From contig OZ316891.1 in assembly GCA_973895155.1 (NCBI GenBank), positions 28,463,145 to 28,527,144 on the forward strand: a DNA stretch of 64,000 bases, given 5' to 3'. Of the stretch, positions 7,438-61,199 are shown in pieces (position 1 is the stretch's first letter; every line of letters begins with the position of its first letter). This DNA comes from Marsupella aquatica. Taxonomy: Eukaryota > Plantae > Marchantiophyta. The position numbers and the translations under genes are program-made. Under the pieces are notes generated by a model. That model saw only the letters and a program-made list of their open reading frames with translations. It made no database searches and had not been told where the DNA came from.

Positions 7438-8183
7438 ACCTACGCATGAGACAGACAGTACAATTAAGTAGACGGTACAGGCAATACATTTTGGCAAACT
7501 GTACAGACAATGTATTTTAGCAGACTTCACAGAAAGTAAAATTTAGCATTTAAGGTACAAAGGCATTAACTACTGCAATGAATTGCAATGCCCACACAAG
7601 GATGCAGAGCAAACATACTTTTGGTTTGTTGAGCCCACACACAAAACTGAACCCCTAGTACAATTGCTCCACCAACACCTCAAATTCGTGGATGTGATTC
7701 ACCAAAAAAGATCTGCAACAACATTTCATGCATTTGAATCACATACAATAGTCATCACATGAAAAATAGGCATTTTTCCAAAAAGATTGGGATCAAGTAG
7801 TGTGATGAGGGTTGTACTTTATACATCCTATATAGGCTATGATAGTGAGACAAATAAGTCATACGTGTAAGGGATGTTTGCAGGTTATCGCATGGCCCAT
7901 TAATTCTGTCATAGAATGTTACAATGTTGGCCAAGTTAAAGTAGACATTAAAGCAGTCTTTGAATGGAGAATTTAAAGAGAGCTTGCCTAATTCTTACAT
8001 TAGAATATTCCACTTAGTGCAGCCAAAATAGGATAAGTTATATACTCTGGACCCTAAACACTTTACCCAAAATTGCTCATACTTCAAAATTTTAAATTAA
8101 TATCCTCGGTGCTTAAGTCAGAGCATTAAGTGTGAGGTCATTCCACTCTGGTCTGTGCATACGGGGTGACAAACTGTGCTCCT

Positions 8184-20466: not shown

Positions 20467-22251
20467 TCATGGCACAGGCACACTGTTGGCATCTGCATCT
20501 CTGAATTCGCCTCCTTCAGCAAATGCATCTACCCTTGTCACAGGAATGAAGTCCCCGCTATCATGAACTACAGGCACTTGGTCTGAACGCCGACGATCAA
20601 AGGCACTATGAGAGTGTAAATGAAACTCAAGGTTTGATCCTTCCATCCGACGTTGCCTGGCCTGTATATGACACACTACACGCCAACCTGGGGAGTCTTC
20701 CACATCCAGGAAGAAAGCTTGCTCCACCTGACTAGGAAACACAAATGGCTCAGACCATTCGGGCAATTTCCCTCTGAAATTGGCCAGCAAGAAACCGTCG
20801 TTGTCTCTCTTCATGGTAGCCCTATTACCAAGCCAATCCTGCCGCACCCATGAACCTTTCATAAGAATCACAGGACTGGACACCGCCCCATAGTCCAGAG
20901 CCCATATGTCAACTAATTCTCCCACATATCCCATCTCCATCCAGGCCCTGTCGTGATTGTGGCTCTGTTGCTCAAATACAGTGATGAGCCCACAGTCATT
21001 CGTCACCCTGTAGGCACTGTCACCATCCTTCACTCGAAAGTGATTCCCATATGCTCTCATCCGTTTGTAAGTCTTCACTTTCAGGCTAGGGGCATTAGAC
21101 AGTAGGTAAACATCTACATCCATGTCTGGGTGGGTCTCATGATGCTCTCTAATTGCCACTCTGATCCACTCCATGAAACCTGGAAAAGTTGTTCTTGCAG
21201 TGGGATGGGCCGCCTTCAATGACTCATACTCCCTGAACGAACAACCACACAGCATTAGCTTGGGTAAACATGAACAGGCTGAAGGAGAAAACCACACGAA
21301 CACAACATTTAAGCTCATGAACTGGATTATAGCACATGTATGCACTCACTATATCCAGGGTTCCATCACCACAGTGTTGTGCAATACAAAGTCATGTGCC
21401 AAGTCTCTCATAGATATGGTCAGGTTCTTTGTGGTTGCAGCCCCTTCCAGTACTTCACCTATCACCCCTTCCTCCTCATCAGAATTCCACACCCTGGTCT
21501 TCACATGCTCATATTGTGCTATGTATTCGGTCAGAAATCCCAGAGTCTCATCCTTGATGTAACCTTTAGCCATGCTTGCTTCAGGTTTGTAATATGTTCT
21601 CACGTGACCTTTGAGTAGCTTCATGTACCGTTCCAAAGGGTACAACCAACGAGCACTCACAGGCCCAAATTGGTGTAGCTCTTCCACAACATGGACAAGT
21701 AGGTGGGTCATGACATCAAAAAATGCGGGAGGAAAATAAATCTCCAGGTCACACAGCACCTGAGCGACATCTTCTGTCAGTTGTGGGAAGTGTGTTTCAT
21801 CCCAAACCTTCACACAAATACGATGAAACACATCACTGAGTCGCATGATCACAGTACGAATAGGCTTCTACAACAGGCCCCTTAGGCATAAAGGCAACAC
21901 CTGTTGCATCAACATATGGTAGTCATGGCTTTTCATACTACCAAGCTTTCTAGTCATGATATGCTTCTTGAAAGCACTGCCATAGTTTGAAGGAACCTTC
22001 AAAGAACTCAACCTCTGCACAAATAGTTCCCACTCTGTGTCTGTCAGAACATAGGGCGCTTGGTACTTCAAGAGCACATCAGCTCTGTGGGCATGTGGCC
22101 TCAACCAAAGATGGGGTTTCATTCCCCTCTGTTCAAGATCCAATCTCACTGAACCAGTGTCTTTCTCTCCACACAAGAATCTGAGTAGACTCTCACAAAT
22201 ATTCTTTTCAATGTGCATAACATCAATGTTATGTTTGCTTGGCTCAAACTC
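20467..22251 (-). pseudogene. TnpD 3' exons of CACTA copy 2 (DUF4218, DUF4216)
   Basis: HNIDVMHIEKNICES, MKSHDYH, FPPAFFDVMTHLLVH, PFVFPSQVEQAFF. In-frame TAG at 21868. Confidence 0.9.
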
Positions 22252-23010
22252 CTGGGGTAATTGTAACGTGCGAGCAAACAGTAGAATTTTTGCTCACACG
22301 GGCAAGATGTCACCTTGTATTGGGGCCCAAAAAAGGTCTGGAATATTCCTCGCTAGCATGGAGACCCTGTTCGATCAATAAATATAGACGGCTACCCATG
22401 GACGATTCTAGTCCCGTGAACGCAATAGATCAAAATGACATATCTTCAGGCCAGCAAAATCGCTAGTCTAATGATGCCAACACATTGAGCCACTCATCCG
22501 AGGTACGGTCTCCACGTACAGGCTTCCACATGTGAAAATTCCCACCCGAGGAAGAGTAATAACAAAAAAGTACTGCGTGATTCCTGCGTGAAAAGAATCA
22601 ACGTGTCATTACTGCCGAGGAAAGGAGGATTAAGGCCGTTTGGACACTAATTAAGTCACTTGCAAGTGAACGGGACACTTACCGTTCGAACTAGACTCGA
22701 ATCCAAGGTGTCGAACCGTCCACTTAAACAAATCCGCTAGCCCCAAAACCACCAGTCTTCCAAATCATTCTCCTGATCACTTCCACCACGTCCGACTTGA
22801 TCTCTTTCATTCGGAACTGCTATCAGTGTTCCAAGTTCTCAACACTCTCCAGATCTAGTTCAGGTAAGCGCGGGTCTATGCTCTGAGCTGTTTTAAGGGA
22901 AGAACTCTCCGACAAGGCATGATATTCATCATATTTCATCGTGAATACTGTTTCCATTTGTTGAATCCTGTTCTATTTAATCATTGTTTGGGTTTTGTAA
23001 GTGCAGAGAA

Positions 23011-23439
23011 ATGTCTGGTGTTCCAAGAAATCCTCCTCAGGGGAAATGGCGACTTGAGATCCGTCGTTACAACCCGGCAACAGATGGCCCGCTTGAAGAT
23101 GACTCTCCTCCGAAGCAGAAACCCGATGCAGAGACTATGAAGGTCTCCGCCGGCAGTAGTGTCCCAACCGAACTCGGTCAATCTGTTGGATCGTCATCAT
23201 CATTGAGGAGAACACCTACTCCTCCAAAGTTAATTCCAGCAGCAAAGTCTCCACCGAAGCCAAAGGTGGATACCACACAGCGCGAGGTTGTATCGAAGAG
23301 GAAGAGGCTCGCAGAAGAGGAGCAGTATTGGATTGAGAGGGAGATCTATGACTACTGGACCGAGGAACGCCTCGCCTCTTTGGATTATGATTCTGAGTCA
23401 GACACTAACTCCGATGCATGGAAGGCGTCCAGCCCCTGA
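23011..23439 (+). CDS. Small MULE-borne protein with NLS-like KRKR and a conserved acidic, aromatic C-terminus
   Basis: ATG ORF of 142 aa. KRKRLAEEEQYWIEREIYDYWTEERLASLDYDSESDTNSDAWKASSP is conserved in the second copy (61599-62035). Confidence 0.7.
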   Translation: MSGVPRNPPQGKWRLEIRRYNPATDGPLEDDSPPKQKPDAETMKVSAGSSVPTELGQSVGSSSSLRRTPTPPKLIPAAKSPPKPKVDTTQREVVSKRKRLAEEEQYWIEREIYDYWTEERLASLDYDSESDTNSDAWKASSP

Positions 23440-24062
23440 GGGTAGAGTCAGGTTGTGGATTTACTGAAATTTTTGTAGTTACAAGCGAACCACATGTCCT
23501 AATGTACTTTCAATATGTATGAGAAGTAAAGTTTGGGCGGTCCTTTCATTTCTATGTGTTTCTCTGGAATGCCATTTTGTACATAGTACTTTTATTTTGA
23601 AGTCACTGTTGGACCCTTCCCAGACTAGCGATATCGCTAGTATAGAACTGTGTTCATCTTCGATAATCAATTCGATCGAGTATTACCACAACAACTTCAG
23701 GGAAAACTTCCCTCCCTAAACCCTAAACATCCTGTCACATCCTGTCCTAAATTCCGTTGATCAGACTAGCGATCTCGCTAGCCAAAAACTGGCGTCATTT
23801 TAATGATCAAACCGTGAACTCTATAGAAACTTGTCAATAGGTTAACACGTATGAAAGTAGGATGTTTCTGTCAGGATGCAGCAGACTTCCTAAGACTAGA
23901 GAGATCGCTAACCTTAAACAGCAAACGCAAACACCATAAAAGTTACCATTATGGACCTCGCTAACATTATGATTCACTCGGTGAAAACAGATTGATATTT
24001 GTGAAACCACAAACTCGAGTAATCCATCCCACCACCCTATAATTAGCATCTCCAATAAACGA

Positions 24063-27000
24063 CTAGTCCCCTATCTGTAACGGAATTAAACTCCTCACTT
24101 CCCCAACAGTCAGAATTGGTTGTTTGACAAGGTCGTCCTTCTCTAGGTTGAGTGAAAACTTGTTTAAATACACCCACAGCAGATGTTTACAAGACATGTA
24201 TGGTTTCCCTCGTGTATGCCTCTTATAAAAGTCTTCACAAGAACACGAAGGGAAACAACAGATTTGCACCCAATATGTGTGCGGAACTTGTGAATCAGTC
24301 TCGTGAGTGGCGATCAAGTATCTCCAACCCCATCCATTTCCGGTAGTTACCTTCTCATTTCCGACAACTCTCATGTATTCTTGTGTAGCGGAAACGATGC
24401 GCTTGAGCAACTCTGGAGTATTGCTGAAACGCTGTCTTGCACCCTTACCATTTTGGGTTTTCAACCGACGGTCCACATTAGTTAGATCAATTCGTTCGGC
24501 GAATGAGTTAACATCAATTCGTAGGTTGACCCAATTGGGGGACGGGAACTCTCCAACTTGATTTGCATCCACATAGGAGAGTCCACTGATCTAGAATCCT
24601 AATCCCAGCAGAAACTCTATCTCGGGATGGAAGAGGCAAGTCCCACGCTGAACCTTGAGCGACTCGGGTGGGGGGGGGGTAGTTGAGCTAGAGTTCTGCA
24701 TCCTCGGCTCTTGTGACACTTATTATTAGGACAGAAGTACAACAACTGGCGATGTGGAGACGATAATCGCAACCCGTGAATGGCGACTCCAACAATTCCC
24801 CCTTGCGCGGACTTACATCCAGTCTCCTTGATGAGATTTCTACATTCATCTCTTCCAAAAACGCTTCGGTCAACCGACCCGTTGCAAACAGGTCCAGCAC
24901 CTCTACCGCTTCGCCTGAGATGCCAGGTCCCATAAGGAACATCAACCTCTCGGATGGAAGGGATCCTTTGGGGGGCATCCCGATGGTCATCCCCGACATC
25001 ACACGGAGGTTGAGTCCCCATCTTCACGGTATCATTGACATTACGACTTGCATCATCACCATCATCATCTGAAATATGGATAACTCCAGTAGAACAACCT
25101 CCGATAGGTGTTGCCGAAGTTGTATTATTTGCTACTTCTGGGTCCGCAGAAGTCTCCGAAACATTGACGAAGCGAAATTCAGGATAGAGATTACGCCTTT
25201 TTAGTCCTGAAGGAGAAGCTGTTGTGCGTGACACCTTGTCATGTCTGTGGGAGTCATTCTCGTGGATTACAGCTGAAGCTTTCCCTTTCCTCTTTGTGGA
25301 TGTTGTTCGGAGATCGCCATGTAATGGAACTGTTCTATAGAATTCATACTTAGCTGAAGACTCAAGCAAAAGATTTGCTGCCTTTTCGTAAGCATCCATG
25401 GATCCCATAGCATCGGCGTTCCTATATGCTAATTCAAAAATGGTCGGCCCCTGGCCTCTGTGAACACCTTCACTGTAGGCAGTAAAAGCAACAATTTGCC
25501 CCGCAGCACGATTCTGGTCCACCTCACATGCTTCAATCAATCCCACTAGTTTCTTCATTTGGCAGGATCTCATGGATGCATGGACTGATTCCGCTCCAGT
25601 ACAATTTGGCATCAAGGCTGACTCCATTGCGGTTTGCGTCTGCGAAAAAGTAGTCCACAGTCAGACCTGATATGCTAGCGAGGTCGCTAGCAAAAACAAT
25701 GACGTCAAAGAGAAATGAAATTGGACACTTACAACGCGGATGAAGTTCCCCCACTGCCTCCACCTCACGACCCACCAAGATAACCATCCTTGGAGAGACT
25801 TCAATTTCCCAGCATAGCAGTTTCCTTCCTTCCACCAACGATGGATTTCGTCAGCAACACGGTAGGCCTGAACATATGTTGGTGCTGTTCTCAGCCTTTC
25901 CCACAGTTTATAGTGCTCTCGATGGCGATCTTCCCGAATACCCTCCAATGTGTGACAAGAAGAGATTGAGCAAAGTGAAAGCCATCACTGTGCTCCTTCT
26001 GTGGGTGACGGACACCTCCAAAAAAAACATTTCGAATGGCGATCCATCCAGCCTCGGCATTATCGGCAATAAATCCTCCAATGAGTGGGTCATGCACATC
26101 ATGATCAGAGGCAACTTCAATCATATATCTCCATGCGGTTTCAAGAGATAAGGAGTCCTCCGCACGGAGCTCACAAGTGAAGATGGTACAAAGGGACCTG
26201 TAATTATGGTCGTACACATGGGCGCTGAAAGTCAGCCACCCAGTGCTTATTCTCCGCATTACATCAGAACTGACCCATGCTCCTTCCAGCTCACCTCCAC
26301 TCTTCATCTGCCTGAGAATATCGACACCAGAACCTGGGCCATTTGTACTCATTTTGAAGACATGAGCCCTATCGGTCTTGCTCCCCTGCCCAGGGAAAAG
26401 GTACCTCTGAACATAAGGAAAATTATTTCGTGCTTGCATCTCACGAAGAGAATCCAACTCACCTTTTTTTGGGTTATCCATTTTCATGCTCCGGAATATG
26501 GCCTGGAATTTCTCAACAGTGGACACAACCTTCATCGATTCCCAAATCTCTCTCTCTTCTTCTTTTGATAGTTCTGAAGAAGACTCTGGATGCAAAAGAG
26601 AAACCAGGTTTCCTATAGACTTGTTAAGAACACGCCCTGGCGTACACACGGGATTCGCTTTATGAACACCAGAAACTATCTCCTCCGCCTGCTGTTTTGC
26701 CAATCGAGATTTCCCCTTCCAAACAACGTGGTCATGGAAACCCATGTGAATAGCCAATCGAGACATATGTTTCGCAACATTTGACTCAAGAGACGGCTTA
26801 GGATAGACATACAAAAGCTTAGCCGGACATTCACGGATGCAGAGAGGCCTCTCCTCACAGAATCCGCACACCAACCCTCCTTCCTCCACAAGCTCACCAA
26901 GATGAAACGGCTCAGTAAATTGTCCCTTTCCTTGGAAAGAAGAGTCATTTTTTGAACCGGTGTGCTTCAACTTTCTACAAACCAGATTTTGGCATTCAAG

Positions 27001-27777
27001 TACACCGGCACATCTGACTTTTGACACAGACTAGTGATTGCGAGGTTTGAGATTAGCTGAAGTTGTGAGAAGTCTCGTCCATGGATAGCCGTCATTATCC
27101 CTATCCATGTCTTGAAGACCATATCCTCGACGAAATTGACCTTCCACCGGAGGAAGCTCAAAAACGCAGTTTCCATTGTAGGAAGTGGGCAAAGTCTGCA
27201 CTTGAATCTCCTTCCAATCGTTTCCCCTGCGGAAATTTGCCAACTCGCTTGACCCAGTAATATTGAGAAAGGCATCATATGCACTAACTCGATAAAGAAC
27301 TGGCTGAGATTGAAACTTGTTTTGACTCACTGCTTCAAAAACGGATTTCTTAGAAGACTTTGTCGACACAGAAGAGACATCCCTACCCACACTCTCAGGG
27401 GAGATGTCAATAATTTCTGGTACTGCAGGTGACGGGCGAGTCGGGGATTCTGGATCGGAAACATTGATATGTGCAATGTCATCCTTACATGAGACTAGCT
27501 CTACATCTGAACCACACTTCAGGTCCCAAGCTCTTTCTGGCAATATTCCTGAACCATTATCCGACACCTCGTGACTTCTGGATCCATCCCGAGAGTAAAG
27601 AACGAACAACTTCCAGATGAAATCATCTTTCAAAAGCCCAAACCTTGATGAGAGAAAAGACTCCTTTACAGAGATAATAGTATTCTCCGGAACATCCAGA
27701 ACAACAACATCACCCGTCGTCTTTCTCTCGATCACAACCTTCGATCCCAATGAAGACATGCTGGAAGTTTTGGACAT
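24063..27777 (-). pseudogene. MULE-type transposase with N-terminal GCM-like zinc domain and C-terminal SWIM finger
   Basis: CAGVLECQNLVC...CGFC...C...HMGFHDH (GCM/WRKY-like); DDE core SSDVMRR...HVYD...GFIADNAEA...FHFAQSL; SWIM CSCEDF...CKHLLWV. In-frame TAG at 27031, frameshifts at ~25950 and ~24670, intron at ~25667-25731. Confidence 0.8.
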
Positions 27778-28452
27778 TACAGTCTACAGCAATCCCCAAT
27801 GTGAGATACTTCACTCTCTTCTTTCTCCAAATACATATGAGGAAACGTGCTTGTGTAGGTGTTGGACTCAACGTATTTATTTAATAAATTCCTCTTATTC
27901 CCGTTATCTGACCGTTATTTTGTCTTATATGACACTATTTGCGGAATGATAAAGCTAGCGATCTCGCTAGCTCAATGAACCAAGTAAAATTGTTCAAATC
28001 CTTACAAAACACCCTTCAGGAGTTCATGTATTTAGTGGTCATTTTTTGGCTAGTGATGTCTCTAGCAAAAATATTTCATCATAAGAGACAATTGTGACCG
28101 TTTATATCCGTTGGAATTGGTCAACGGGTACCTATATGTCAACAGTACGGTACAGTACCGGACACCTGTCTCTTTGTCATTAGATACTTTTCTTTCAGTC
28201 GTGAGTTTGGTGGTTCGTATTTCCAGAAGTACATGTATACCTGACGGTGTCTGAAAAATGATTGCGAGAAGAGTCGTATAGAATATTTGTATCTCTTTTC
28301 ACGACCGGGCGCATCATTCAGGTGAAAGCAACAGACGAGGGTACGATTCTGTCTTTGATTGGAAGATCGATTCTCGGGTTTTTTTATGTTCACAAAGCGT
28401 GTCGCCCTCGACCTTGACCTGTTCATACCCTTATCACTTCACGGACCCCCTG

Positions 28453-31400
28453 ATGGAGCCATTGTCTTCACCCGAGAGCTTGTCATCAATAGGATCGTTC
28501 AAGTCAGTCGAGTCAAGCCGAAGGGAGACCAGGTCTACAGTGAACAAGAAGGCGCTCTAGGCGGGATTGAAAACACCGAGGAGGCCCAAGATGGTGAACC
28601 AAGTAGATGTTGTGAATCCAACGTTTCAACTTGGAGCTTCAGAACCCTATTCTGTTGTCATCAATCGCCATCTTTTCCCTTTTGGAAATGACGAATTTGG
28701 ATTCCCGCTCGCTCCTCCGAGGATTCCCCTTTGCAGAATGCGAAACATGCAGATCGTTCGGTCCTTGCAAACTAACTCGACTGCGATCGAGACACTCAAG
28801 AATGAATTCCGGATGCAGGGATACATCGAAGATGCGCCTCGATTTTACGTCCAAATGACCGGCGAAGATGGCCTTGTCCAGATGTGCGAGGATGTGATTC
28901 GGGAGTCGTGGGATGACATGTGGATTCTTCAGAATGAAGAATTCGAGAGGGAATGTGATTCTCACAAAGCTTTCAAAATTTTGAAAGACAAAATGTTCTG
29001 TGTTTTCGATGGAAATCATCGTCTGTACTCATGGATGCAGCTTGCGGACGAGAATCCCCATGATGTCAAATATCATCCTCGAGTTGTTTGCCGAATTTTC
29101 AAGGATGACAAGAACTCATTCGTGCAGATTGAGTCGGCAATGCATGCGCTGAATAGGTTTGTTTCTTTTCCTTCAAGCTGTGAATTGTATCTAAAATTCT
29201 TTCATTTCCTCTTGTTAGCGATCTCGCTGACCTGTTTCTTTTGTTCAGGTTGACTCAATGTCACGTTGAGAATTCTTGGGTCCTTGAAGCAGAGAGAGTC
29301 CACAAGGTTCTCAGTAATGACCTTTCTGTATACAAAGATATCATCGATGCAGACAACTACAAACTTTTCTAGCAGAAGATGGCAAATATCAAGAAATCGG
29401 CTTGGTATTCGAAGAACATGGCACTCGATGCCTGCACGTACATTCTGTCTGCTGCTAATATTGCAGCGCAGACGGAAGATTTGAAGAAGAAGTTTCAGTT
29501 GAAAGAAGCGCAAGGAGAACCTCTTTCAAAAGCTGCGCAAGACATGGCAGTCAAAGACATGATGAAGGAGCAACTGGCAGATTGGAATGTGAAGGTGCCA
29601 AAGATTGGACCTCTCCTAAATCCTGAGTTTGGTGACTTTTTCCAGAAGTGTGTTGAGATGCACAACTACTGTGAACATGAGAGGAAGGAGGCCCAACGAA
29701 CAGACGATAAAGGAAGGGGTAATGTGTCATGTGGTCTCGATCGTGCGAGGCTATTTACGGGTGTCTCGTCGTTGACTCCCCAGCTCAGATGTGTACTCCT
29801 CGAGGCACAATGCAGACCTGAGCTTCGCAAGAAGTACTTCCACCCTGGTCAATTCTTGGACAGCGAAACAAAACTTTGGCTTCACCGATGGGCTGTATGG
29901 GAGCAGGTTGAGTCAATTTGTTCTTCGCTCATGTCTGAGATTATTTCAGAGTTGATCCCAACTATTCCAGATGCAAGGATCCTTACTTCATCTGAGAAGA
30001 CAAAGCCATCGCTGATCCTTGACATAGAGGAGGACTTTGAAGATTTCCAAACGAGAGTGAAATCTCGTTTTTTCAAACAGATTTGGCCACCAAAGTCGGG
30101 TGAGAAGATTGACATCTCACTTTTTCGGAGGAGGGCGAAGAGATATACGTATCGTTTTTTTGTGGATAGAGAAGTTGCTGACAAAACATATTGGTGGTCC
30201 TATCCTGCTTGCTTCTCGCCTTGGATAGCAGGAGTAAAAGAGGATCCGACCTCTGTTAAATATGGAGAGTACTCGATGTACCCATGTGAGGGAGTGGAGG
30301 CTCCAAGGAAGATGAGTGAGTGGGAAGTCCTTCACTGTCCATGGTATTTAGAATCAGACAAATGGGCAGTGACATTTGACACAGCAGAGAAGGCAGCATT
30401 TCATATGATAAATTGAGGCTTGATACCAGAGTCGTACATTACAGAGTCCAAATTAGCTCCTGCAGAAGCCGAGGCTGGCGGATGTGATGCAATGGAGAAA
30501 GTTGTTCTTGGTGTAGCTGCCATTGTCGACCGGAGTAGATCGAGGAGACCTCGGAAGGTGTCGGTGAAGGACACGTCCAAAGATGGATCAGTCTTGTCTG
30601 GGAAGCAAAGCAGGTCTTTTTCTCCTCTTTTTTTCATACCTCATTCGGAGTAATTTTGTCTCAGTCACCTGTCTGACATTAACATGTTTTTCAGAGAAGA
30701 GAAAGGCTACAGCCTCTGGCAGTTTGAAGAGTGGGGCGGATGATGGAGAAGAACCCAAGTCTCCTGATGTTGAGGTCACAACAAAATCTGATGTGGACCT
30801 GGGTTCAATCAAGCGTTTAAAGAGGAAGCGCAATGTCCAAATTCTCTCCGACTCGGATGAGGAGGAAGCATGCGTCGCGCAAGGAGTAGCACGAATGTGT
30901 GGTCTTAAGAAGGACGGTGAGAGGCATTTCTTGGCAAAGAGCAATCTCACGGAAACTGCAAACTCAATTAGCCAGAGGAAAATAAGACCTCCCTGGATGG
31001 GCGATGCGGATCAGTGGTTGTCTGGAATGAGCAAATCAAGCAAACACCCAAACGCCGTGATGATCAACGGAAAAAATTATGCTGGAATTGGTGCTCACTT
31101 GGGTTTCATATTCCTTCCCACGGGTCATCGAACAAGCATCACAGACCGGGAGGTCCCGAAGTGGAATGTTTGGAGTGAGAAATTACCATATTATTTCTTT
31201 GGAGTCATGCTTCCGATGCTTGCCGATGATGGTTATGTCGCAGTTCTTCACAGCTCTGACTATAACCATATGAGGCAAATGTTTTCTGCAGTCGAACAGA
31301 AGAACAAATTTAAACATGTCCAGCAGTATTCGGTTTTGCTTTCATCTCCTTTGTATCAGGCAGATATGGACATCGAGGTAAGATATCCTCCATATTTTTT

Positions 31401-31977
31401 GTGAAATTTTTGCTAGCGAGCTCGCTAACCAAAAGTGCCCATTTCTTACATATTCTCGTTTTCAATTCAGGTGGTTACTCTCATTATGGATGTCTTCTGC
31501 AAGGTGGAATTCTCGGCAAAAGTCCCGAAACATACAGGATATGTTCCAATGACTTCCTTGGAGGATGCCCGCCATAAATCGATGTTGAGTGTTTGCTACC
31601 CAAAAACTGATCCCAGTCCCAGGGCGGCTTTCGCAGGTTCCAATAGATTGTCAGTTGGGTTCATGCAAGCCGTAATGGAGATCCTTACTTTGCCAAAGGA
31701 CATTGTCATTGACTGGACTGTTGGAGATGGAAGTGCTTTTGCCGCTGGGGAATACGCTGGGAGATTTGTTGTGGGTGTTGAAGATCAAGACATTCTTCAT
31801 CTGCGTGCACAAAGAACTTTGGCAAATGTGTTGGATAGACATGCCCAGAAGTTGAAAGGGGCCGCAGACCCGAAGAACGATGATCCCAATGATGAAGGGT
31901 CGGATGATGAGTTCACCATCCCAGGAGATGATCAGGGAGGACCTTCAGACGAGAAGGATGAATTCGACCTGGAGTAA
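28453..31977 (+). pseudogene. ParB/Sulfiredoxin-like N-terminal domain fused to a beta-class N4C/N6A DNA methyltransferase-like domain; 3 introns, 3 premature stops
   Basis: Exons ~28453-29156, 29249-30612, 30695-31377, 31471-31977 with GT-AG introns. ParB-like VRSL...IETLKNEFRMQGY...VFDGNHRLYSW. MTase-like RLSVGFMQAVMEILTLPKDIVIDWTVGDGSAFAAGEYAGRFVVGVED. Stops at 28558, 29370, 30414. Confidence 0.7.
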
Positions 31978-32148
31978 AGCACTTGGCCTTTGATGTAGAA
32001 CTCCCTATTTGGTGTTTTTCTTTTGTTTGTAGAATTTTCGGATGTTTAGTATTGATCCGACTCTGGTGATTTCTTCAGTGATAGGTGTTCGGATTGGTTT
32101 TCGGAGGAGAGATTCCGTCTTCGAAAAGAAATCGAGGATCATTTTCTT

Positions 32149-32418
32149 GTGACCCCTGAGAAGGGATTTGCGCTTCCATGCTATGCTGAAAAGACTGCAA
32201 AGGAGGTTGATGAAGCGCCCGTCATTTTGACTTGGGAGGGGAAAGGTCTGCGGTCAGTGAGGGGTGTTCGGAAAGCCTTTTACTACCCTCAGTTCATAGA
32301 TGATGAGGCTGGGACTGTAGCACAGTATGTTGACGGTTCGGCTGAGGAGACTGATAGGGAGTCCAGTAGCGATCCTAGTAATTCCTCAGATGATTTGGAA
32401 TCAGAGGATTCTCAATGA
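32149..32418 (+). CDS. Possible additional acidic ORF or alternative exon inside the MULE
   Basis: Open frame downstream of a possible acceptor TTCTTCAG (~32078). No recognisable motif. Confidence 0.25.
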   Translation: MTPEKGFALPCYAEKTAKEVDEAPVILTWEGKGLRSVRGVRKAFYYPQFIDDEAGTVAQYVDGSAEETDRESSSDPSNSSDDLESEDSQ

Positions 32419-32878
32419 CTCATGGTCAATTTCAGATGCAATCTCATTCCAGAAGATATTTGTCATACCAAAGTTTTATTAAAGATGGATTGTGAAAGGT
32501 TTTTTGACCTGGTTTTGTTGACAGTGATGATGCCTTTTCATTAAGTGCAGTGTTGTGAAGATCTCAAGTTTTTCGGTTGTGGATATTTCAGTATCTGCAT
32601 TTTCGTTTTCCTTAACTGTTTCACAATATATATCGACAATCTTACTTGGGAATGCACCTTAACTACCCTCAAATTACGAGCAAACTTGCCTTGCTAGCCT
32701 GATGTCCTCGCTAGCAAAACTCCTGTTTGCTCGCACAATAGAATACCTCAAACTCCTGCATCATTGCAATGCAAAAGCGTCAGGAAATGCCTCAAGTTTA
32801 GTCTCTCTCTTCGAAATGAATGCACATGCTCTGAACCAAAACATGTATCCCAATTAGCATCAACTCCAAGAGGCTTAC

Positions 32879-35143: not shown

Positions 35144-36016
35144 TCACTCTGATTCAGAATCGCTAATGACCCATTCCTCACTTGTTGTCTCATAGTCCTC
35201 TCTGTAAGGATCCTGACCCTTCCGTGGCCAGGCCTCAAAAAGATCATAGTCCATTGGGTTTTGACGCTTCCCAGCTGCTACTGATTCCACAAGCCAAGCA
35301 TATGAAACCACAAACACATTATGGGACATGACATAAAAGCGAATGTCTCCCTTCCCAAACTTGCGGCAGGCTTTGGGATATGACTTAGTAATGACATGAG
35401 TGGTGTCCTCTGTTATATTCTCCTCCACTGTCCCACCTAGGTCAAGCACCGTGGACTTGTACACTTTGCACTTAACCTCTCCAATTCCCGCCTCCACAAA
35501 TACCATGCTCAGCCCTTTCAGAATGGGGGTTGGTTGCTTCGTCTCCTCAGCCAACATACTCTTCAGCCTTCTAGAGCTCTGTCCTTTGTTGAGTACAGGT
35601 CCATATTGGACATCAGCAAGCCGTGCCTTTGCTTCCCAGACTTCTTGTTCAGCCCAAGCTGATGCAGTAGCTTCTTCATCCTCCCACAGCTCATATTGCT
35701 CAGTATCCTGTACAATCTGATGTGCTATGGAATCTGTGATCCAAGAGGCCTCAACTACTTTTAGGCCTTGCTTAGTAATTGCAGAATTCATGTAGGACCA
35801 TGACCACTTCTTTATCACTGATAGCCATGTCCCTGCAACAACATGTGTAGTCTCTGGAGTGATGTCCTGAACTACAGTGCCATGGAGCTCAGAGAATCGT
35901 TTCTGTATAGTTGGCCAATGCACTTTGGTCAACCCATGCTGGCCATGGACCAAAATGGCTCTGACCCCTGTAAACACTGTTGGGTGGTCACACTTTCTAC
36001 GTTTCCCAGGCTCCAT
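35144..36016 (-). CDS. Tandem-BRCT protein copy 2 (upstream region displaced by the LINE)
   Basis: Intact ORF, about 20 amino-acid differences from 5300-6172 by eye. Confidence 0.85.
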   Translation of the reverse strand: MEPGKRRKCDHPTVFTGVRAILVHGQHGLTKVHWPTIQKRFSELHGTVVQDITPETTHVVAGTWLSVIKKWSWSYMNSAITKQGLKVVEASWITDSIAHQIVQDTEQYELWEDEEATASAWAEQEVWEAKARLADVQYGPVLNKGQSSRRLKSMLAEETKQPTPILKGLSMVFVEAGIGEVKCKVYKSTVLDLGGTVEENITEDTTHVITKSYPKACRKFGKGDIRFYVMSHNVFVVSYAWLVESVAAGKRQNPMDYDLFEAWPRKGQDPYREDYETTSEEWVISDSESE

Positions 36017-36265
36017 GTACACACACCCTCCTTGGAATGGTTTTTTTTATAAATTTTAATACCGTGAAAGACCCCACGGATAGGGGGAACAACAGCCCTT
36101 AATACAGGAACAGCAACAGCACACTAGCGAGCCACAAAGAGAGCCCAAAAGCACAAAAGAGAGCATCAAAGCCCCAGGGAGAGCCCCCCCTCAAAGAAGG
36201 GAAATAACACCGATCAAGAGAGCACCCATGCCCTTCCCACAGCAGCCCCCCAAAAAGCAGACCCC

Positions 36266-39200
36266 TCAATCAGCACCGCCGCCGCTAGAGGGCACCAAGA
36301 GAATCCTGTCCCCACCCTGTCTCAGCCAGATTTGCCTCGTTCCCCGCAACCATTCCTGAGCCCGGTTCAACCGAGAGCGACGCCGCCCAAAGCGTAAACC
36401 AGCCCCAACCGCATGGATGTGATTGGCAGTCTCAGCAAGCATCAGGCCCAAGTCAAATGAACGTCCCACCTTGTCAGAGAACATATGTTCATTTCTTCCC
36501 AGCCAAATCATCCAGAGAGTCTGATATACACAAAAGATCCTAGCAGTGTGAATAGGCTCCGGTCCTGTCGATGCATCAAGAATAGCCAGCAGACCACCTC
36601 CAATGGGTAAGCGAAGCTCCGTCAAAATCCTATTAAGCAGCACATGAAGGCTCATCTTGGGTCTCAAGAACTGGTAGACCCTACAGTTGGTGATCTGAAA
36701 GTCCTTGAGAGGTTCTGCCCTGTCAGACCAGCGCCATTGTCTGGCCGGAGGATCCCTATCCCACCTGCAGGCAGTTGACTCCCAAATTCTCCCTAGGAAC
36801 GCTCTAGCCAGCCCTCTGTGCTCCCCCGTGAATCCTTGCAGCACCTGCCCCCTAAGCGGAAGGTCTTTCCAGCCCCCTATCTCCACCGACCATCCGTCCT
36901 GAATTGATCTCATTCCCAAGCGTCCACAAATAGCAGTGACTCCTACAATGTCCACATTTGGCAATGAATTGAAATCTACCATACATCTAATTGCATCGTT
37001 AATGCTCCAGCGTCCAGGGGCACCATATCTCCCAAGACAAAAAGCCAGATGGGCACGCAGCTCCTCCCAAGCCTTCCATAGACCACTTGTATACCTGAGA
37101 CCACCGCCTGCCCTAGGAGTACAGAGCAGAAGCCTATCCTTGAACGTGTAATTGTTTCTTCTGATCACCTTGTAATTCAACCATCCCATTAAAGATAAGT
37201 TGGCTGCCAGCATCTTTGACCATTCCCTGTCTGGATACTCTAGGGCCTTAGTGAACCATTGTGATAATAATGCATTGGAGTGGCTTCTGAAGTCCTTGAA
37301 TCCCAGGCCGCCCTCTATTTTTGGAAGTGTCATCTTGTCCCATGCCACCAGCGGAATTTTCTTCCCACCTGCAGGATTATATCCCCACAGAAAATCTCTA
37401 CTGAGGGCAATGAGTTTCTTGGCCAGACCCGCTGGACCCGCTGAAGCCTTGAGGTGCATCACATGGTAGATTGGGATGGCCTGGAGCACGTGTTTGACCA
37501 ATAAGGTTCGACCTGTGAAAGAGAGGAGCTTATTTGTCCAGGATGACAGTCGTGAGCTGATTTTATCTAGGCAGAATCTGTGCAGTTGCTCAGTCTTCAG
37601 CCCGGCCCCCAAGGGAGTGCCCAGATATTTCTGACCTCCCCCATTGCACTCACTTGACAGCCAGAGTACAGCAGCCAATCCGGGATGACCTCAATTGCCA
37701 AGGGAATCACCACAGATTTGCGTAGGTTCAGCTTTGCTCCAGAACCCATTTCATAACATGCAAGTGCAGTTTGTGCCTGGGTGAAAGCTTCCTCCGTGGC
37801 AGGAATGAACATTCCAACATCATCTGCGAATAATCTGTAGCATATTGTGAGTGTGTCCGTGATTGACAGTCCACTAAGTCTCCCAGCCTCCATCTCCGCA
37901 GCTAAGAAGTCCATCAGCGGTTGTGTCGAGATGACAAAAAGTAGGGGCGACAAGGGGCAGCCCTGTCTCACCCCCCTCTTAAGCTCAATCATACCCGTCG
38001 CAAAACCATTGACCATTGCCTTCGAGAAAGATCCAGCCAACAGAGCCCGTACCAGTGTGATAAAGTGGCCACTTATTCCCAGTAAGTGCATTGTGTCCCA
38101 TATGTATTCGTGATTCACCCTGTCAAAGGCCTTTTCGAAATCCAACTTCAAGAAAAGTGCCTTCGTTTTCTTGTGCTGTATCCAGTCACATGCGAGCCAG
38201 GCCAGTGAGATGTTTTCCAGAATGTGGCGCCCCTGTATAAATCCGGTCTGTTGGGGGCTGATTATCTTGTTCATGATTTCTTGTAACCGCAATGCCAGGA
38301 TCTTAGCAATGACTTTGTACGTTGTGTTCAACATTGTAAGGGGACGCCAGTCCTTCAGTGATCTCTTATCAGGCTTCTTCGGAATGAGCTTTATTATCCC
38401 TTCTTTTAACGCACTATCAATCTCTCCTGTCATCCAGAATTCTTGTATCATTTCCATCAAGTCCTGTCCCAGAAACTCCCAGCATGCGCGCAGTACTTCT
38501 GCCGTTAAGCCGTCTGGGCCAGGCGATTTGTCTCGTGGTAGCATCCAAAGCACTTCCTTCACCTCTTTAGTTGTCGGGAGAGCTTCCAATTTCATTCTCT
38601 CTGCCGCTGTAAGCGCAAATTTTGTGTGTTGCAGTAGACGTCTCCTCTCTTGCCGTCGTTCTTGTGTCTCCCTTTGTGAGGGTTCCTGCGGTGCATAAAG
38701 TGCTTGACACATTTTCTCCACTTCAAGCACAATGCTTGCCGCCTCTGTTATCTCCGTCCCATCCTCTTTGAGAATCAGGTTCATGGTTTCTCGGGCGCGT
38801 TTAGCCTTTACTATCGCATAGAAGAACTTTGTTGATTCGTCTCCTTCTCCCAGCCATTTAATCCTTGCAAGTCTCCGTCCCTTATTAGCCACTTCCAACT
38901 CGGTTGCATGCAGTGTGTCTTCTGTTTCCGTGTATTCCTTGATTTCATCCTCTGTGTGTTCCTCCAGAATGGATGCTTTCAGTGCTCTCATTCTCGCTCT
39001 AAGAAACTCCATCTCAACCTCTGCCAGCCTTGGTCTTGCTTGTAACTCCATGTATTTTTGCCTAAAATTGGAGCACGCTTTTGAAAATCGTAGCACAGGG
39101 TTTGCAAATTCCCTCCTTCCTTCCCTCCAGGCTCCTTCTAGAAGCGCCAGGTCCTCCTTGTTGCTTAGAAGCGCTGGATTGGCCATGAATAGTCTCACCT

Positions 39201-39966
39201 TACCTCGCTCCACCTTCTGACCTGCATCTCTGAACCTCCCTTTCAGTATCACCGGGTCATGGTCTGATAACGCTGATCCTCCTTCATGCACCAGCTCTAC
39301 TCTCTCCTCTAACCACCATCCCTTCTCGCTAATGTAGAACCTATCTAATCGGGATTGTACCATTAATCCCCTTCTCATCCTTCTCCATGTGAATTGGGCA
39401 CCAGTAGCGCCCCCGGTGATCTCCCACGCATCTACCAGGTCAAAGCGCGTTTTTAAGAAGCGCCAGAATTCCGCTTCTCTTCCGCCGATCAGAGGTGATC
39501 TCCCGGTTGAGTCCGCTCTTCTTTCTGTCATGTTGAAGTCGCCACAGATGATTCAGTTTACCTACGGAAGCTCATCCTTAAGCTCGTTCCATAGCAAAGC
39601 CCTTAAGTCAACCGAGTTTGGTGCATAGATAGATGCCACTCCATAATTGCCTCCTTCGTTCTCAATGATTATCCACACAGCTCTGCCAAGGTCCAGTTTG
39701 CCTGATGCTACCACCTTCAAAGACGGGTGGACCAGAAGTGCCGTTCCTCCCCTGCCTTCCTCTGGTGCCGATGAGAAGTGTTGATAGTTTGAGAGAATTG
39801 TTCTCAGAGCCATGTCCAAACGGAATTGATCCGTCTTCACTTCTTGTAGAGCTAGGCATCCCAGCAGAAATCGCAGTGCCTGTACCCAGTTTTTGACGAC
39901 ATGTTTGCGGTTTGTCTCACACAGCCCACAGACGTTCCATGTGGCAATCCGCATTATGTTCTCCAT
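36266..39966 (-). pseudogene. LINE ORF2 (AP endonuclease plus reverse transcriptase), two frameshifts
   Basis: IATWNVCG, LQEVK, SIYAPN, SRLDRFY, SDHDPV, KSPGPDG, WRPLTMLNTTYK, LKLDFEKAFDRV, RGVRQGCPLSPLLF, FADD, KYLGTPL. Confidence 0.95.
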
Positions 39967-40026
39967 CCCCTCCCCCCCCCGCTGCTCCCCAAGTCGAGTG
40001 GTGCACTTGGTCAGCACACCGTCACC

Positions 40027-42191
40027 CTAGATACGATTCCGTCCTCCAGGGGATAGCATCCAGCCCTGAGAGCCGCTCCCCGTTTGCTGCTCAGTCAGTC
40101 CCCCTATCAGGGAGTAGTCGTCTCTCATCTTAGTTTGTGCTGCGCCTCTTTGTTCACTTCTCGGACTCCTCGTTTCAGGGCTGAGCAATCTGTTTGTCCT
40201 TGTTGAGCTTTCGCCCGCACCTGCATCAGACATGGATCCTCGTGAGAAGTACAGCGAACGTTGTTTTTTTGCTTCACCCTTCGGCTTATCTTTATCTTCA
40301 GTTGGGGGGGTTCTCAATTCTTGTTTCCTGGTTCGTGCTTTGAGTTTGCTATTCGATATGTAAGCTTCATATTCTGACATCTCTGCATCGGTGTCCCCAT
40401 GGTACGAGAAATTCCCTTCGGCTTCTACCTCTAAGAGCGATCCTGGAAGCCCGAGTGTGTCTGTTCTGGCCTTCGTGCTGAATTCCGGCCCAAAGCTTGG
40501 TGCACTGGCATTTAGAACAGAGCCTCTGCGGTCTGTGTTACCTCCAGGATCCCGGGCCAGTCCACTCCTAGGTGGGAAGTCTCGCGAATTCCCCTTAGTC
40601 CTAGTCGGTTCCCATCTCACCATGGCGTCCAAGGGTCCACGAGTGGGCTCCAGCAATTCCATCCCAATAGCACCCACATTCGGCCGTTGTGGGTTAGCTG
40701 GAGTTCCTTTGTCCGGTTCTCTAACATCTGTCGCAATGATCAGCTCCACATGGGCAATTTCCTCCTCAACTGAGTTTTTCCGGATCGTGTTCGCCTGCCG
40801 CTCTTGGTTCTCCCTGAATTTAACCCGAACCATAGCATTCTCTTGGGCCTTTTGTATCTCTTCTGGGTCAGCCTCCGAGTGTCGTTCATCGTCTTTTCAT
40901 CAGGTATTGCCAGCACACTCGTCGGCCTCTGCCCTTCATCTCCTTCTCGACAGCTGCGGGCTAGATGCCCTTTCTTATGGCATTTGTAGCAGTGGTAAGG
41001 AATATTGCGGAAGGTCACCGGTTGCCAAATTACTATATCCTTCTGAATTTTCACTCGAACACTTGCCGGTATCTCCCTGTCAGTGTCCCATAGTATGCAC
41101 GCACGGTCATGTGGGTAAGAACTGAATTGGTCTCCTTGAATGTAGTATAGTAGGGTGCCAAGCGCGCTTGCAATTTTCCTTCTGCATCCTTCCAGCTCCA
41201 AGGCTCTAAATGGTAGCTCAATCCATACTGGCAGTTTGGTGTAAGACTCATTTTTTATGTCAAAGGTTGGATCCCATGGGAAGGTGTATACAAATCTATT
41301 TTCCATAAACCATGGCGCCCCATTCAGTGCCAGATCCCGATGATCAGGTTCTTCAAAGATTACCATGTAAAAATTTTTCCCCACAAACTTGACTTGTAGC
41401 ACCGGCCAGCGCCCTTGGCTAGTCATTTCGTCTTCTACCCAGTCTCTGAAGGCTGGAAGCAATGGGGTTCTGTCTGTGAAGTAGCATAGCAAGGCACAGT
41501 TATATAATTGCCTCACATTCATAGCTGCTTCCGTCATGTTCCATTCAACTGTGGCAAACAGCTTTTTGTCAAGGTCACCCTTAGAGCGGTGTGCTACAGC
41601 TCTTAGAATTCTGATACATTCCTCCGATGTTTCCTCCTCTTCAGCTCCTTCGCGGCCCCATGTATCAGGATTCCGGGTACCATTTGAGATTCCACAGATT
41701 CCAGGACCCTCTCCCTTGAGCTCTGCACCTCTCAGGCTATGTCGTGTCTCTCCATCCAAGGCTGGGACCTTGTCCCGAGCTGAGCTGCCGCCATTCTCAT
41801 CCTCTTCCATGTCCATCAGATCGTCCTGTATCTCCCGTTGTGAGCCGGCTGAGCCCCCCCTACTCTCTCCCTGTAGGCCAGGATTGCCTCCTCCCTTTCT
41901 CTCCCGCCGTGGTCCGTCCCCATCATTCCGCGCATCTTGCGCCGAGAATTGGTTGCACCTCCCCACTCCCTCCTCTCCGAGTTTTCCTTTATTCTGAGAG
42001 GCCAAACCAACCAGATTGGTCTCGCGCTCTCTCACCCCCTGAAGCGTCCCCATTCTAGTTTGGACAGCCATCGGTGTAGCCACTCGGATGTTCCTTGATT
42101 CAGAAAGACGTCCATTCTGATCGCTTCTTCCACGAGATGTGGTTTCTGAGCGCCCGTAGTAGTCCAATCCCTTTTCACCTTCGCCCGACAT
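40027..42191 (-). pseudogene. LINE ORF1 (DUF4283-like region plus CCHC zinc knuckle), frameshifted near 40830
   Basis: NGAPWFMENRFVYTFPWDP...LPVWIELP; CYKCHKKGHLARSC. Confidence 0.9.
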
Positions 42192-43551
42192 TAAATTAAT
42201 GTATGCAATGACAGTCAGACGGCGTTAATAAGATGTTCGGGGCAGTGCTTACCTTGTAATCGAAGAGGGCTCCAGGCTCCTCTCGAGTCCACTGGGTCCA
42301 ATCTCATTAACCAAGATGTCCTTCCCGAACTATTCCATAATTCTCCCATCAGAATAGAACCACTCAGGCACACTTTGTGCCGCCTTAACTCTTCTCTGCA
42401 TGTTCCGCCATCCTCTTTGGCAATGTCAGCTCCAAACACTTTTAGGAATCTGAGTGCCGCCACTCGCTGTCCAATCCGAGCTTGCAGACACCAAGGTCCG
42501 TTGCCGTAATCCACACCGTTTGTTTCAGTCGCCCACTGTAGCACCCCACCAGATCGATGCGAACCCCTGTTCCAATGTGTCTACCTTTTAATCCCCGCCT
42601 CCAAAAGTGGCAGCGGGAAAGGTGCTCCCGCTAGACTAACGCATCGGCTCATCCGCCACCCCTGGCTCCAACTCTCATGACCGGATCTCCACAATTGTGC
42701 TCCCGCAATCCAAACTAGTATTCCACCCTAAAACAGCAGAACCGGCTCTAAAGCGGATCCCGATCGTAGCGATGGCGAGAGAGAGCAGAAAAAGCTTCGT
42801 GCAGAAGTAGGGGTCACCCTCGTATTGATTCCACCCCTCTCGAGAAGCTTTTTGCCCCTCTCAATCTCCTTCTGGAAGGTCGAAACGCTCATGGATGAGC
42901 ACAAGTCCCTCCGCCCTTCTTCGCAAGTCCACTGTCAGTTCTCTGTCAATCAGTCCCATGTACACACACCCTACGTGATGACAGTGAATTTTGGAAGAAT
43001 GGGTTCACCTGACAATACAAGGACAACAAAATTCCTGCTTTTTGAGTTGATCTAGCCCACTGGTGCTCAGGTCCGATTTTGATAGGTACAAGGGATATGT
43101 GAACAATACGTACTAGGCACCTGCACAGATGTAGGACATTGTTTGAATATATACTACAAAATCCATATCGAAGGTGAAATGAAGTGCAACCAACTTGTCA
43201 TGGCACATACATATTTTGTTGTAAAGGAGGATACATTCAATGACAAACTTATAGGGCAATTTGATTAATTGCATGCCTGATAATTTATACGCTTACAACT
43301 TAGAAGTCCTGTTTTAATTTAGCAGTCTGATGAAAGTGTTTATGAAAATGACCACTCAGCCTAAATACTTCCAAGAAGGCTTGTAAGGATAAGTTTTTAT
43401 AGGCATGTACCCAGCCACTGACGCCAGAGCACAAGATAAGTGCTGCCTATATAAACTCGCCTACCCAACTCCTTTTCAAAATTGGAATCTCTGCAATCTC
43501 AAAAAATAGTACATCCATATCAGGTGCACTGTGCATGTACAATGTTCAGCT

Positions 43552-44205
43552 TCACAGCCAAGATATGTGATCTCTCACAGGAGTGCGCGAGGTAGGATCA
43601 ATGGCATGGCGATGACAATAAAATATCCATCGATCAACACCATATGCAGAGTGATCATAGATTTCTCTATCACAAGCATAACCCTCTGCTTGACGATCTT
43701 TCAGGCAATGATAGTGCCACATGGTGGGACACCTAGCACAGTGGACTATGTCAGTCCAGTACTCATGATCATGCTCACCACATGCCTTGCACCTATGAAG
43801 TGGGCAAGCTGTGGCATGAGCAGGCAAACACTCAAAACAGAAAAATCTCACACAAAAACGGTCTGGACATTTCCTAACATTTGCTGCAGCATCAACAGAG
43901 CCCTCATAGGACCCCAACTTCCCACACTGTGCACACTTAGCCTGCTTCTCCAAACAATCAGTGCACATCCAGTCTCCCTGGTGTGTTGACGGGAGGCCCA
44001 CCCCTGGACAGTTGTTTTCTGTAGCAAGGTCAGACTCCGGGTTGAGGTGGAAATGCCTCATGCAAGGGCCCTCACAAATGGCACAACAATGAGCTACCTT
44101 CTGGAAAATCTGACTTGCAGAGAAGTTAGTAGCATCTGCCCCAAGTACACCTGTGTTTCTCACCTCTGTCACACGCTTTTTGGCTTGAATTTTAGGTCGT
44201 GCCAT
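43552..44205 (-). CDS. EDM2-type PHD module copy 2 (open frame, 27-nt in-frame deletion in the first PHD)
   Basis: Near-identical to 6757-7437 but lacks DDGGSLVIC and has Tyr where copy 1 has a stop. Confidence 0.82.
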   Translation of the reverse strand: MARPKIQAKKRVTEVRNTGVLGADATNFSASQIFQKVAHCCAICEGPCMRHFHLNPESDLATENNCPGVGLPSTHQGDWMCTDCLEKQAKCAQCGKLGSYEGSVDAAANVRKCPDRFCVRFFCFECLPAHATACPLHRCKACGEHDHEYWTDIVHCARCPTMWHYHCLKDRQAEGYACDREIYDHSAYGVDRWIFYCHRHAIDPTSRTPVRDHISWL

Positions 44206-44932
44206 GCCTGCGCATGAGATAGACTCTACAGTTTAGCAGACTGCACAAAAAGTAATATATATTTAGCATTTAAGGTACAAAGGCATTTAGATAGACTCTA
44301 CAATTTAGCAGACTGCACAGAAAGTAAAATATATTTAGCATTTAAGGTACAAAGGCATTTGCTACTGCAATGAATTGGAATGGCCACACAAGGATGCAGA
44401 GCAGACATACTTTTGGTATGTTGAGCCCACACACAAACCTGATCCCCTAATACAATTGCTCCACCAACACCTCAATTTTAATTGTGGCTATGATTCACCA
44501 AAGGAGATCTACAACAACATTTCATGCATTTGAATCACATACAATAGTCGTGACATGTAAAACAGGCATTCTTCAAAGAGGATTGGTATGAAGCCGTGTC
44601 ATAAGGGTTGAAATTTATACATCCTAAATAGGCTATGATAGTGGCTGAGACAAATAAGTGATGCATAAATCATATTTTACAGGTTATCACATGGCCCATT
44701 AATTCATTGAACGTTGCAATGTTCACCAGGTTAAAGCAGTCATGAAAGCAGTCTTTCAATAGAGACTTTTATGCAAGTTTGCTAGCCTCTTAAATTAGGA
44801 TATTTTGCTTAGTGCAGGCATAATAGGATAAGTTATGTACTGTTGACCCTAAACCCTGGACCCAAAATTGCTCATACATCAAAATTTTAAGTAAATATCC
44901 TCTGTGTTGAAGTGAGAGTGTTAAGCTATAGG

Positions 44933-61190: not shown

Positions 61191-61199
61191 ACCCCTTAG

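Follow-up and report, generated by a model that had tools for sequence, protein, structure and literature searches.

To our knowledge, ParB-type clamps are known only from prokaryotes and their mobile elements. Among them, VirB, a cytidine triphosphate (CTP)-dependent anti-silencer of the ParB family, loads at a palindrome, from which it spreads (PMC10653881), and BisD activates an integrative element along which it slides (PMC12409273). VANC proteins bind motifs in the introns, intergenic and terminal DNA of VANDAL transposons, and how a binder of short motifs acts over an element of several kb was left open in that work (PMC5735166). Here we describe a 64,000-nucleotide stretch of the liverwort Marsupella aquatica (contig OZ316891.1, positions 28,463,145 to 28,527,144 of the forward strand; hereafter the window). 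It contains a Mutator-like element (MULE) with palindromes in its non-coding DNA and with an accessory gene, whose product is predicted to join a ParB N-domain fold to a beta-class amino-methyltransferase fold.

In combining a MULE, an accessory gene and arrays of non-coding motifs the locus is VANDAL/VANC-like, but the folds are of unrelated, bacterial types. VANDAL elements likewise carry their accessory gene on a MULE, together with short motifs in introns, spacers and ends that are often tandem and specific to subfamilies (PMC5735166). VANC itself is built from DUF1985 and DUF287, neither of which was matched by Pfam in the accessory protein family, and its motifs are non-palindromic and 8–9 bp long, against palindromes of 14–22 bp here; anti-silencing was demonstrated for VANC, whereas for the accessory protein we infer it by likeness (PMC5735166). 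With ParB-family clamps (Shigella VirB, RK2 KorB, ICEclc BisD, ParB/parS) the accessory protein shares a predicted N-domain, a GxxR-like motif and, as candidate loading sites, palindromes on a mobile element; it differs in being eukaryotic and spliced, in an insertion of about 50 residues in the domain and in its fused methyltransferase fold. The same two domain types occur in phage ParB-methyltransferase loci and their eukaryotic derivatives, among which the available part of the survey lists no land-plant MULE family; it does describe DIRS1, a retroelement that keeps an inactive, PCIF1-derived amino-methyltransferase (Iyer et al., PMC4738411).

The accessory gene is divergent from the transposase gene. 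We infer its splicing from splice signals and homologues: four exons (Table 1), joined across introns of 92, 85 and 93 nt, give 1084 codons. Introns 1 and 3 are GT-AG, and homologous open reading frame (ORF) fragments terminate at identical intron 1 and intron 3 positions; the donor of intron 2 is GC here and GTAAGT in other copies. The spliced protein is colinear with P0155 (KAL3677308.1), a stop-free gene model of 1207 residues from Riccia sorocarpa, at 28% across 683 columns (E = 9e-68) and 26% across a further 320 (E = 8e-18). An earlier note on this sequence had described such a four-exon gene, interrupted by three stops, and this observation is borne out; the motifs VRSL, GY, VFDGNHR, FIFLPTG and DWTVGDGS also lie where it had placed them. 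At the third stop (30414) every contig that covers it in two runs reads CGA; the first two (28558 and 29370) are listed in no contig row, and each has the end of a contig or stretch less than 31 bases away.

The N-terminal region was modelled from P0155 residues 154–727 (predicted local distance difference test score, pLDDT, of 72 on average, exceeding 85 for the greater part of the first 170 residues). On structural realignment the top 14 rows were ParB, Noc, KorB, pNOB8 ParB and PadC, with Z of 8–9.2 to ParB, Noc and KorB (best row: Z 9.2, root-mean-square deviation (rmsd) 2.3, 99 aligned) and 6.0 to sulfiredoxin. An independent search of 48,161 chains placed KorB first (Z 7.9) and PadC second (Z 7.2). 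Because Z below 8 may reflect a common arrangement, the support for ParB comes from the agreement in rank and from conserved residues: the GxxR-like motif DGNHR (G in 62, N in 59 and R in 58 of 65 rows), an upstream R (50 of 55 rows) and a downstream N (57 of 64 rows). These three probably correspond to the nucleotide-binding boxes of ParB (compare PMC10653881). ParB clamps have GERR in place of DGNHR. The model of the homologue thus predicts a ParB N-domain fold with a GxxR-type motif in the accessory protein, in agreement with the ParB-type fold foreseen by the earlier note. At the sequence level, the ParB profile found no match in the PDB, and weak matches were to DGQHR (2 of 22 members, E = 0.001), DndB (3 of 65), DUF1015 and an unnamed phage family.

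Language-model features of P0155 residues 155–420, spanning the ParB domain and helical region, gave fungal DUF3723 proteins as top look-alikes (score 0.96; 187 of 256), so DUF3723 proteins may have a ParB-type fold. DUF3723 is, like the accessory gene, a conserved accessory gene of eukaryotic transposons, the fungal Starships (bioRxiv 2021.12.13.472469). Its profile matched none of 65 members of the accessory family, which makes the likeness a lead only, and among the matches listed the word ParB was absent from the DUF3723/Starship literature.

For the C-terminal part we used a model of the Calypogeia protein P0006 (mean pLDDT 70). It shows a permuted Rossmann fold with the motif order IV to X-I-II and resembles CcrM, BceJIV, MboIIA, HpyAVI and PvuII at Z 17–19 (CcrM: Z 19.2, rmsd 3.5, 219 aligned), with Foldseek at E = 1e-12. 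Profiles agreed, with a match to M1.HpyAVI (E = 7.5e-6); exon 4 alone matched a phage DNA methyltransferase (E = 8e-5) and PF01555 (E = 0.11), the latter also matched by 14 of 30 homologues at E ≤0.05, none above the curated cut-off. A beta-class amino-methyltransferase fold, also anticipated by the earlier note, is therefore predicted. The UniRef label of P0155, 'Trimethylguanosine synthase', was rejected because the fold matches those of DNA amino-methyltransferases. The predicted fold, permuted motif order and kept S-adenosylmethionine (SAM) motifs are shared with CcrM, M1.HpyAVI, PvuII, the bdelloid N4CMT and DN4MT1, and SAM motif I is conserved across the family (D in 32, G in 31 and G in 32 of 34 rows), with the acidic E after the next strand in 29 of 32.

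Motif IV is altered. In place of the beta-class (D/N/S)-P-P-(Y/F/W) the window copy reads FLPT, and a profile alignment to three phage enzymes puts the corresponding FLPN on DPPY (hhalign probability 97). Among 38 rows the first position is F in 10, Y in 9, A in 8, D in 4, C in 3, S in 2 and another residue in 2, so that 32 lack D/N/S; the fourth is T in 28, N in 5, S in 2 and another in 3, and is never aromatic. The change that the earlier note had seen at DPPY is thus real, but it is not the decay of one copy, since it is family-wide in the lineage; for the same reason the proposed marking of the family's own copies with N4-methylcytosine (4mC) or N6-methyladenine (6mA) is unlikely here. Riccia members keep the D (DLPT, DMPS), and metagenome members read DIPE, NVPS or YVPS. 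The fern protein P0148 (Adiantum nelumboides), outside the 38 rows, reads DVPF. Judged by these residues, the fern form may be an active amino-methyltransferase, and in the lineage of the window copy the protein has likely become a pseudo-enzyme with SAM binding retained. N4CMT ranks below the bacterial enzymes in profile and structure comparisons. For the first half of the domain, a tree from 40 rows and 105 columns, in which long branches meet and 15 of 37 branches are open, gives neither the origin nor the order of motif loss.

The second line of evidence lies outside the coding sequence. The 16-bp palindrome CTAGCGA-NN-TCGCTAG, a motif derived from the very sites counted, occurs nine times in the MULE at up to three mismatches, four times perfectly, where shuffles give an expectation of 0.135. 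All nine sites are non-coding, although non-coding DNA makes up 2,789 of the 10,495 bp; they lie in introns 1 and 3 of the accessory gene, in the putative intron of the transposase gene, in the spacer and at the left end, and two of 13 sites are coding when four mismatches are allowed. Since the flanks vary from site to site, what is repeated is the palindrome proper. Elsewhere in the window it occurs three times in an end fragment at 61–63 kb and twice more, both with three mismatches.

The window's own palindrome was found in no distant locus; at the corresponding places relatives have palindromes of other types, with sequences that differ between subfamilies. One locus (L007) has 17 copies of GAGGTGCC-N6-GGCACCTC, 16 loci share ACTTTYR-N4-YRAAAGT, and L023, L036, L037, L069 and L083 have further types. 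Of 31 loci with enough sequence, 16 had a palindrome repeated at least three times in the 1.5 kb upstream of the gene; none of 60 control windows and none of 31 shuffles did. Tandem repetition multiplies motifs of every kind, and arrays were therefore also compared by arm length: arms of at least 7 bp occurred in 9 of 34 tandem arrays near the gene versus 0 of 24 elsewhere (L027 and L034 being one cluster). The arrays of relatives cluster upstream of and within the accessory gene. Like VANDAL elements, this family therefore has subfamily-specific motifs in its non-coding parts.

That the gene belongs to the element, as the earlier note had it, follows from the 9-bp target-site duplication, the terminal inverted repeats and contigs from three of four runs that join both flanks without the MULE. 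The insertion splits a CACTA transposase gene, with the Transposase_21 part on the right and the DUF4218 part on the left, and an uninterrupted CACTA paralogue near position 2260 of the window has the target in single copy. All 30 bins of the MULE region were covered in each of the four runs (of six listed, from three organisms) by differing contigs that number from hundreds into the thousands; contig depth is not copy number, and we read this coverage as a multi-copy family. The transposase carries acidic residues in the 26271 and 26073 regions, xFHF and a C-terminal SWIM-like CxC...CKH, and its gene has a putative intron at about 25640–25732. The D, D, xFHF and SWIM-like motifs, present also in its relatives, would fit a MULE-type transposase. 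A Pfam scan of the transposase gave no MULE or SWIM match, so the class assignment rests on these motifs, the 9-bp duplication and the inverted ends. Other copies have no stop at 27031 and an extra base near 25957; the copy in the window is dead.

A HMMER search at E ≤0.001 gave 288 proteins of the accessory family, of which the best 150 were listed and 20 looked up. A species was named for 14 of these 20: Riccia sorocarpa (9), Calypogeia fissa (3) and two Adiantum species (2), that is, two liverworts and two ferns. From a metagenome scan the best 80 of 161 loci were taken, or 52 clusters once near-identical ones were merged. Where at least 4 kb was available (20 loci), a methyltransferase-like stretch follows downstream in 18, on the strand of the accessory gene. 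Among 19 loci with at least 3.5 kb, tblastn found a related transposase upstream on the opposite strand in four; DNA profiles add one at L018, L019 and L059, and a further match is downstream in L034. The remaining 12 of the 19 gave no transposase by tblastn or DNA profile, and most of them are badly decayed. Absence of the gene from other copies of the family, which the earlier note had named as a test of its proposal, was not observed: the gene is a regular family part, with domain order, intron positions and divergent layout recurring among relatives at 25–35% protein identity.

The descent from a phage ParB-methyltransferase fusion suggested in that note gained no support. The two domains are about 570 residues apart; scanning prokaryotic genomes with the ParB alignment gave no relative of the ParB domain, a difference from the phage proteins, and the same scan of viruses gave two weak matches, one of them the DGNHR stretch in a long phage protein. 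A word-based protein search with exon 1 found nothing among longer proteins where HMMER succeeded, and the exon 3 alignment recovered no relative from metagenomes. A search of openly accessible papers found no description of the family, nor is it mentioned in the available parts of the DN4MT1 preprint, Iyer et al., the hornwort chromatin paper and the centromere atlas.

We propose that the accessory protein is a ParB/VirB-like load-and-spread anti-silencer of its own MULE copies, a reading to which we give a probability of roughly 45%. As a dimer, the protein would bind the palindromes in the non-coding DNA of its own element; a sliding clamp would close when the ParB domain binds a nucleotide, as in ParB, KorB, VirB and BisD; and the clamp would spread from the palindromes along the element. 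The methyltransferase fold would be retained as a module that binds SAM and DNA or shields bases. In this way the family's copies would be kept from silencing, as VANC does for VANDAL elements, with the palindromes as candidate target. A dimeric, sequence-specific binder encoded by the element would be the simplest cause of the palindromes; this, with the spreading of VirB and BisD and the motif placement of VANC, is why we favour the proposal.

Several observations weigh against it. No helix-turn-helix of the ParB kind was recognized in the P0155 model, which is a further difference from the known clamps. Structure matches end near model residue 173, except for one row that extends to 290 with rmsd 5.6, and a structure search gave no clear fold match for the helical middle region, which was modelled together with the ParB domain; no DNA-reading domain could therefore be assigned. 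Foldseek alone ranked Noc and ParB on top of the P0155 matches, but at E ≥0.16, with no ParB match below 0.1. DGQHR and DndB, recovered by sequence, are branches of the ParB superfamily that need not be clamps. The window copy was not shielded: of the 21 private differences listed for it, 13 are of the C-to-T type, and 7 of those 13 fall at CG sites, which account for 144 of 865 cytosines. High CpG content (observed/expected 0.72 in the MULE, 0.31–0.49 in the CACTA regions) was rejected as a sign of shielding, because it is not specific: a stretch resembling a long terminal repeat (LTR) has 0.81. The palindromes count for less through the derivation of the window motif from its own sites, and 15 of 31 relatives have no upstream array.

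The transposase could equally be the palindrome binder. The palindromes would then be transposase sites, and the accessory protein would do another job, such as pairing of ends or choice of target. A four-mismatch site at 32699 places the motif, with 22451, near both ends of the element, and no DNA-recognition helix was recognized in the accessory protein. Binding of motifs and demethylation of the family are within reach of a Mutator transposase by itself: that of AtMu1 activates its own family without an accessory factor, although its binding peaks at the inverted ends (bioRxiv 2026.08.24.746577). Here most sites are internal, in introns of both genes and in the spacer, and the arrays of relatives sit upstream of and within the accessory gene, so that we consider this alternative unlikely, while holding it the strongest of the competitors to the clamp.

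Somewhat less probable again is a working 4mC/6mA writer, or its non-catalytic half, that the ParB domain delivers to element DNA. The whole beta-class fold is predicted and the SAM motifs are conserved; Riccia members keep the D in DLPT and DMPS, and the fern member reads DVPF and metagenome members DIPE or NVPS; inactive partner subunits such as METTL14 are known (PMC4738411), and liverworts use 4mC (DN4MT1 preprint). N4CMT and Marchantia DN4MT1, both host genes, keep SPPY (TSPPY in the latter; DN4MT1 preprint), and changing SPPY to APPA abolishes the activity of N4CMT (PMC8885841); motif IV of the accessory protein, by contrast, has no aromatic residue in any of 38 rows and mostly lacks D/N/S. 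The element also holds no partner gene.

A partition or tethering factor, which would hold excised or donor copies and bias their inheritance or reinsertion while leaving silencing untouched, is improbable in our view. The closest structures are partition proteins, the palindrome arrays resemble parS clusters in layout, and the DUF3723 look-alikes (0.96) are conserved Starship cargo; yet the element contains no ParA-like gene, and the methyltransferase fold kept downstream in 18 of 20 loci would be left unexplained. That the gene is mere cargo, captured from the host in the manner of Pack-MULEs, would suit the broken window copy and the many decayed database copies, but it is very improbable given the layout recurring between distant relatives and the contigs of four runs that cover the accessory gene together with the transposase.

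If the accessory protein is a clamp of the proposed kind, this would be new for eukaryotes and would offer, for this family, a concrete and testable answer to how motif binding acts on a whole element. On a wider and doubtful view, seed-free land plants might possess a eukaryotic ParB-parS system: a nucleotide-gated sliding clamp that loads at subfamily-specific palindromes and takes a methyltransferase fold with it along the element, where this fold would serve liverworts as a shield and ferns perhaps as an active 4mC/6mA writer, with the fungal Starship DUF3723 proteins maybe parallel or related. The series DVPF, DLPT, FLPT provides a natural route to how a bacterial-type methyltransferase became non-catalytic in plants, and the stop-free Riccia gene models make assays possible now.

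Table 1. Features of the MULE in the window (positions count from the first base of the window).
Feature	Position	Strand	Remarks
Whole MULE	22255..32749	.	10,495 bp, inside CACTA (Tnp2) transposase gene; defined by target-site duplication, inverted ends and empty-site joints
Left target-site duplication	22246..22254	+	9 bp, AAACTCCTG
Right target-site duplication	32750..32758	+	9 bp, AAACTCCTG
Left terminal inverted repeat	22255..22281	+	27 bp
Right terminal inverted repeat	32723..32749	-	6 mismatches in 27 to left end
Small ORF	22981..23439	+	relative (39% identical) at 61602-61862 in second element fragment
MULE-type transposase gene	24063..27777	-	broken here: stop at 27031, frameshifts near 25957 and 24673
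Accessory gene, exon 1	28453..29156	+	low-complexity N-terminus; stop 28558 (TAG); predicted ParB/Srx-type domain ~28708-29156; DGNHR 29008-29022
Accessory gene, exon 2	29249..30609	+	predicted all-helical middle region; stops 29370 (TAG) and 30414 (TGA)
Accessory gene, exon 3	30695..31377	+	basic/acidic linker; first half of predicted methyltransferase fold; FLPT 31111-31122 replacing DPPY
Accessory gene, exon 4	31471..31977	+	second half of predicted methyltransferase fold; SAM motif I DWTVGDGS 31711-31734; acidic tail
Small acidic ORF	32056..32418	+	
Palindrome	22451..22466	.	2 mismatches, subterminal
Palindrome	23625..23640	.	perfect, non-coding
Palindrome	23766..23781	.	perfect, non-coding
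Palindrome	23896..23911	.	2 mismatches, non-coding
Palindrome	25675..25690	.	perfect, putative transposase intron
Palindrome	27955..27970	.	perfect, spacer between divergent genes
Palindrome	28050..28065	.	2 mismatches, spacer
Palindrome	29215..29230	.	3 mismatches, accessory gene intron 1
Palindrome	31413..31428	.	1 mismatch, accessory gene intron 3

Further traces of the MULE family were seen. A contig present in two runs (X1 and X3) joins 23287 to 27518 across a plant telomere-type repeat and represents an internally deleted copy. The related end fragment in the window (60700–62949) lies in the opposite orientation, with an inverted end at 62923–62949 that has 3 mismatches to the main left end; besides its three palindromes it has the ORF related to the small one on the left.

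The rest of the window holds other mobile DNA. Both CACTA copies have accessory genes of their own, encoding twin BRCT domains and NSD-like PHD fingers (5300–7542, 35144–36046 and 43552–44232), and these proteins are candidate chromatin readers on a transposon. The MULE-bearing CACTA copy also contains an element resembling a long interspersed nuclear element (36266–42224), with gag-like, endonuclease and reverse transcriptase ORFs recognized by eye. A tandem repeat of about 704 bp is present in 3 to 4 copies at 51563–53752. Inverted 32-bp arms with CACTA/ACTAGTG at 13693–13724 and 54814–54845, 41 kb apart, are possibly the ends of a large CACTA element enclosing the others.

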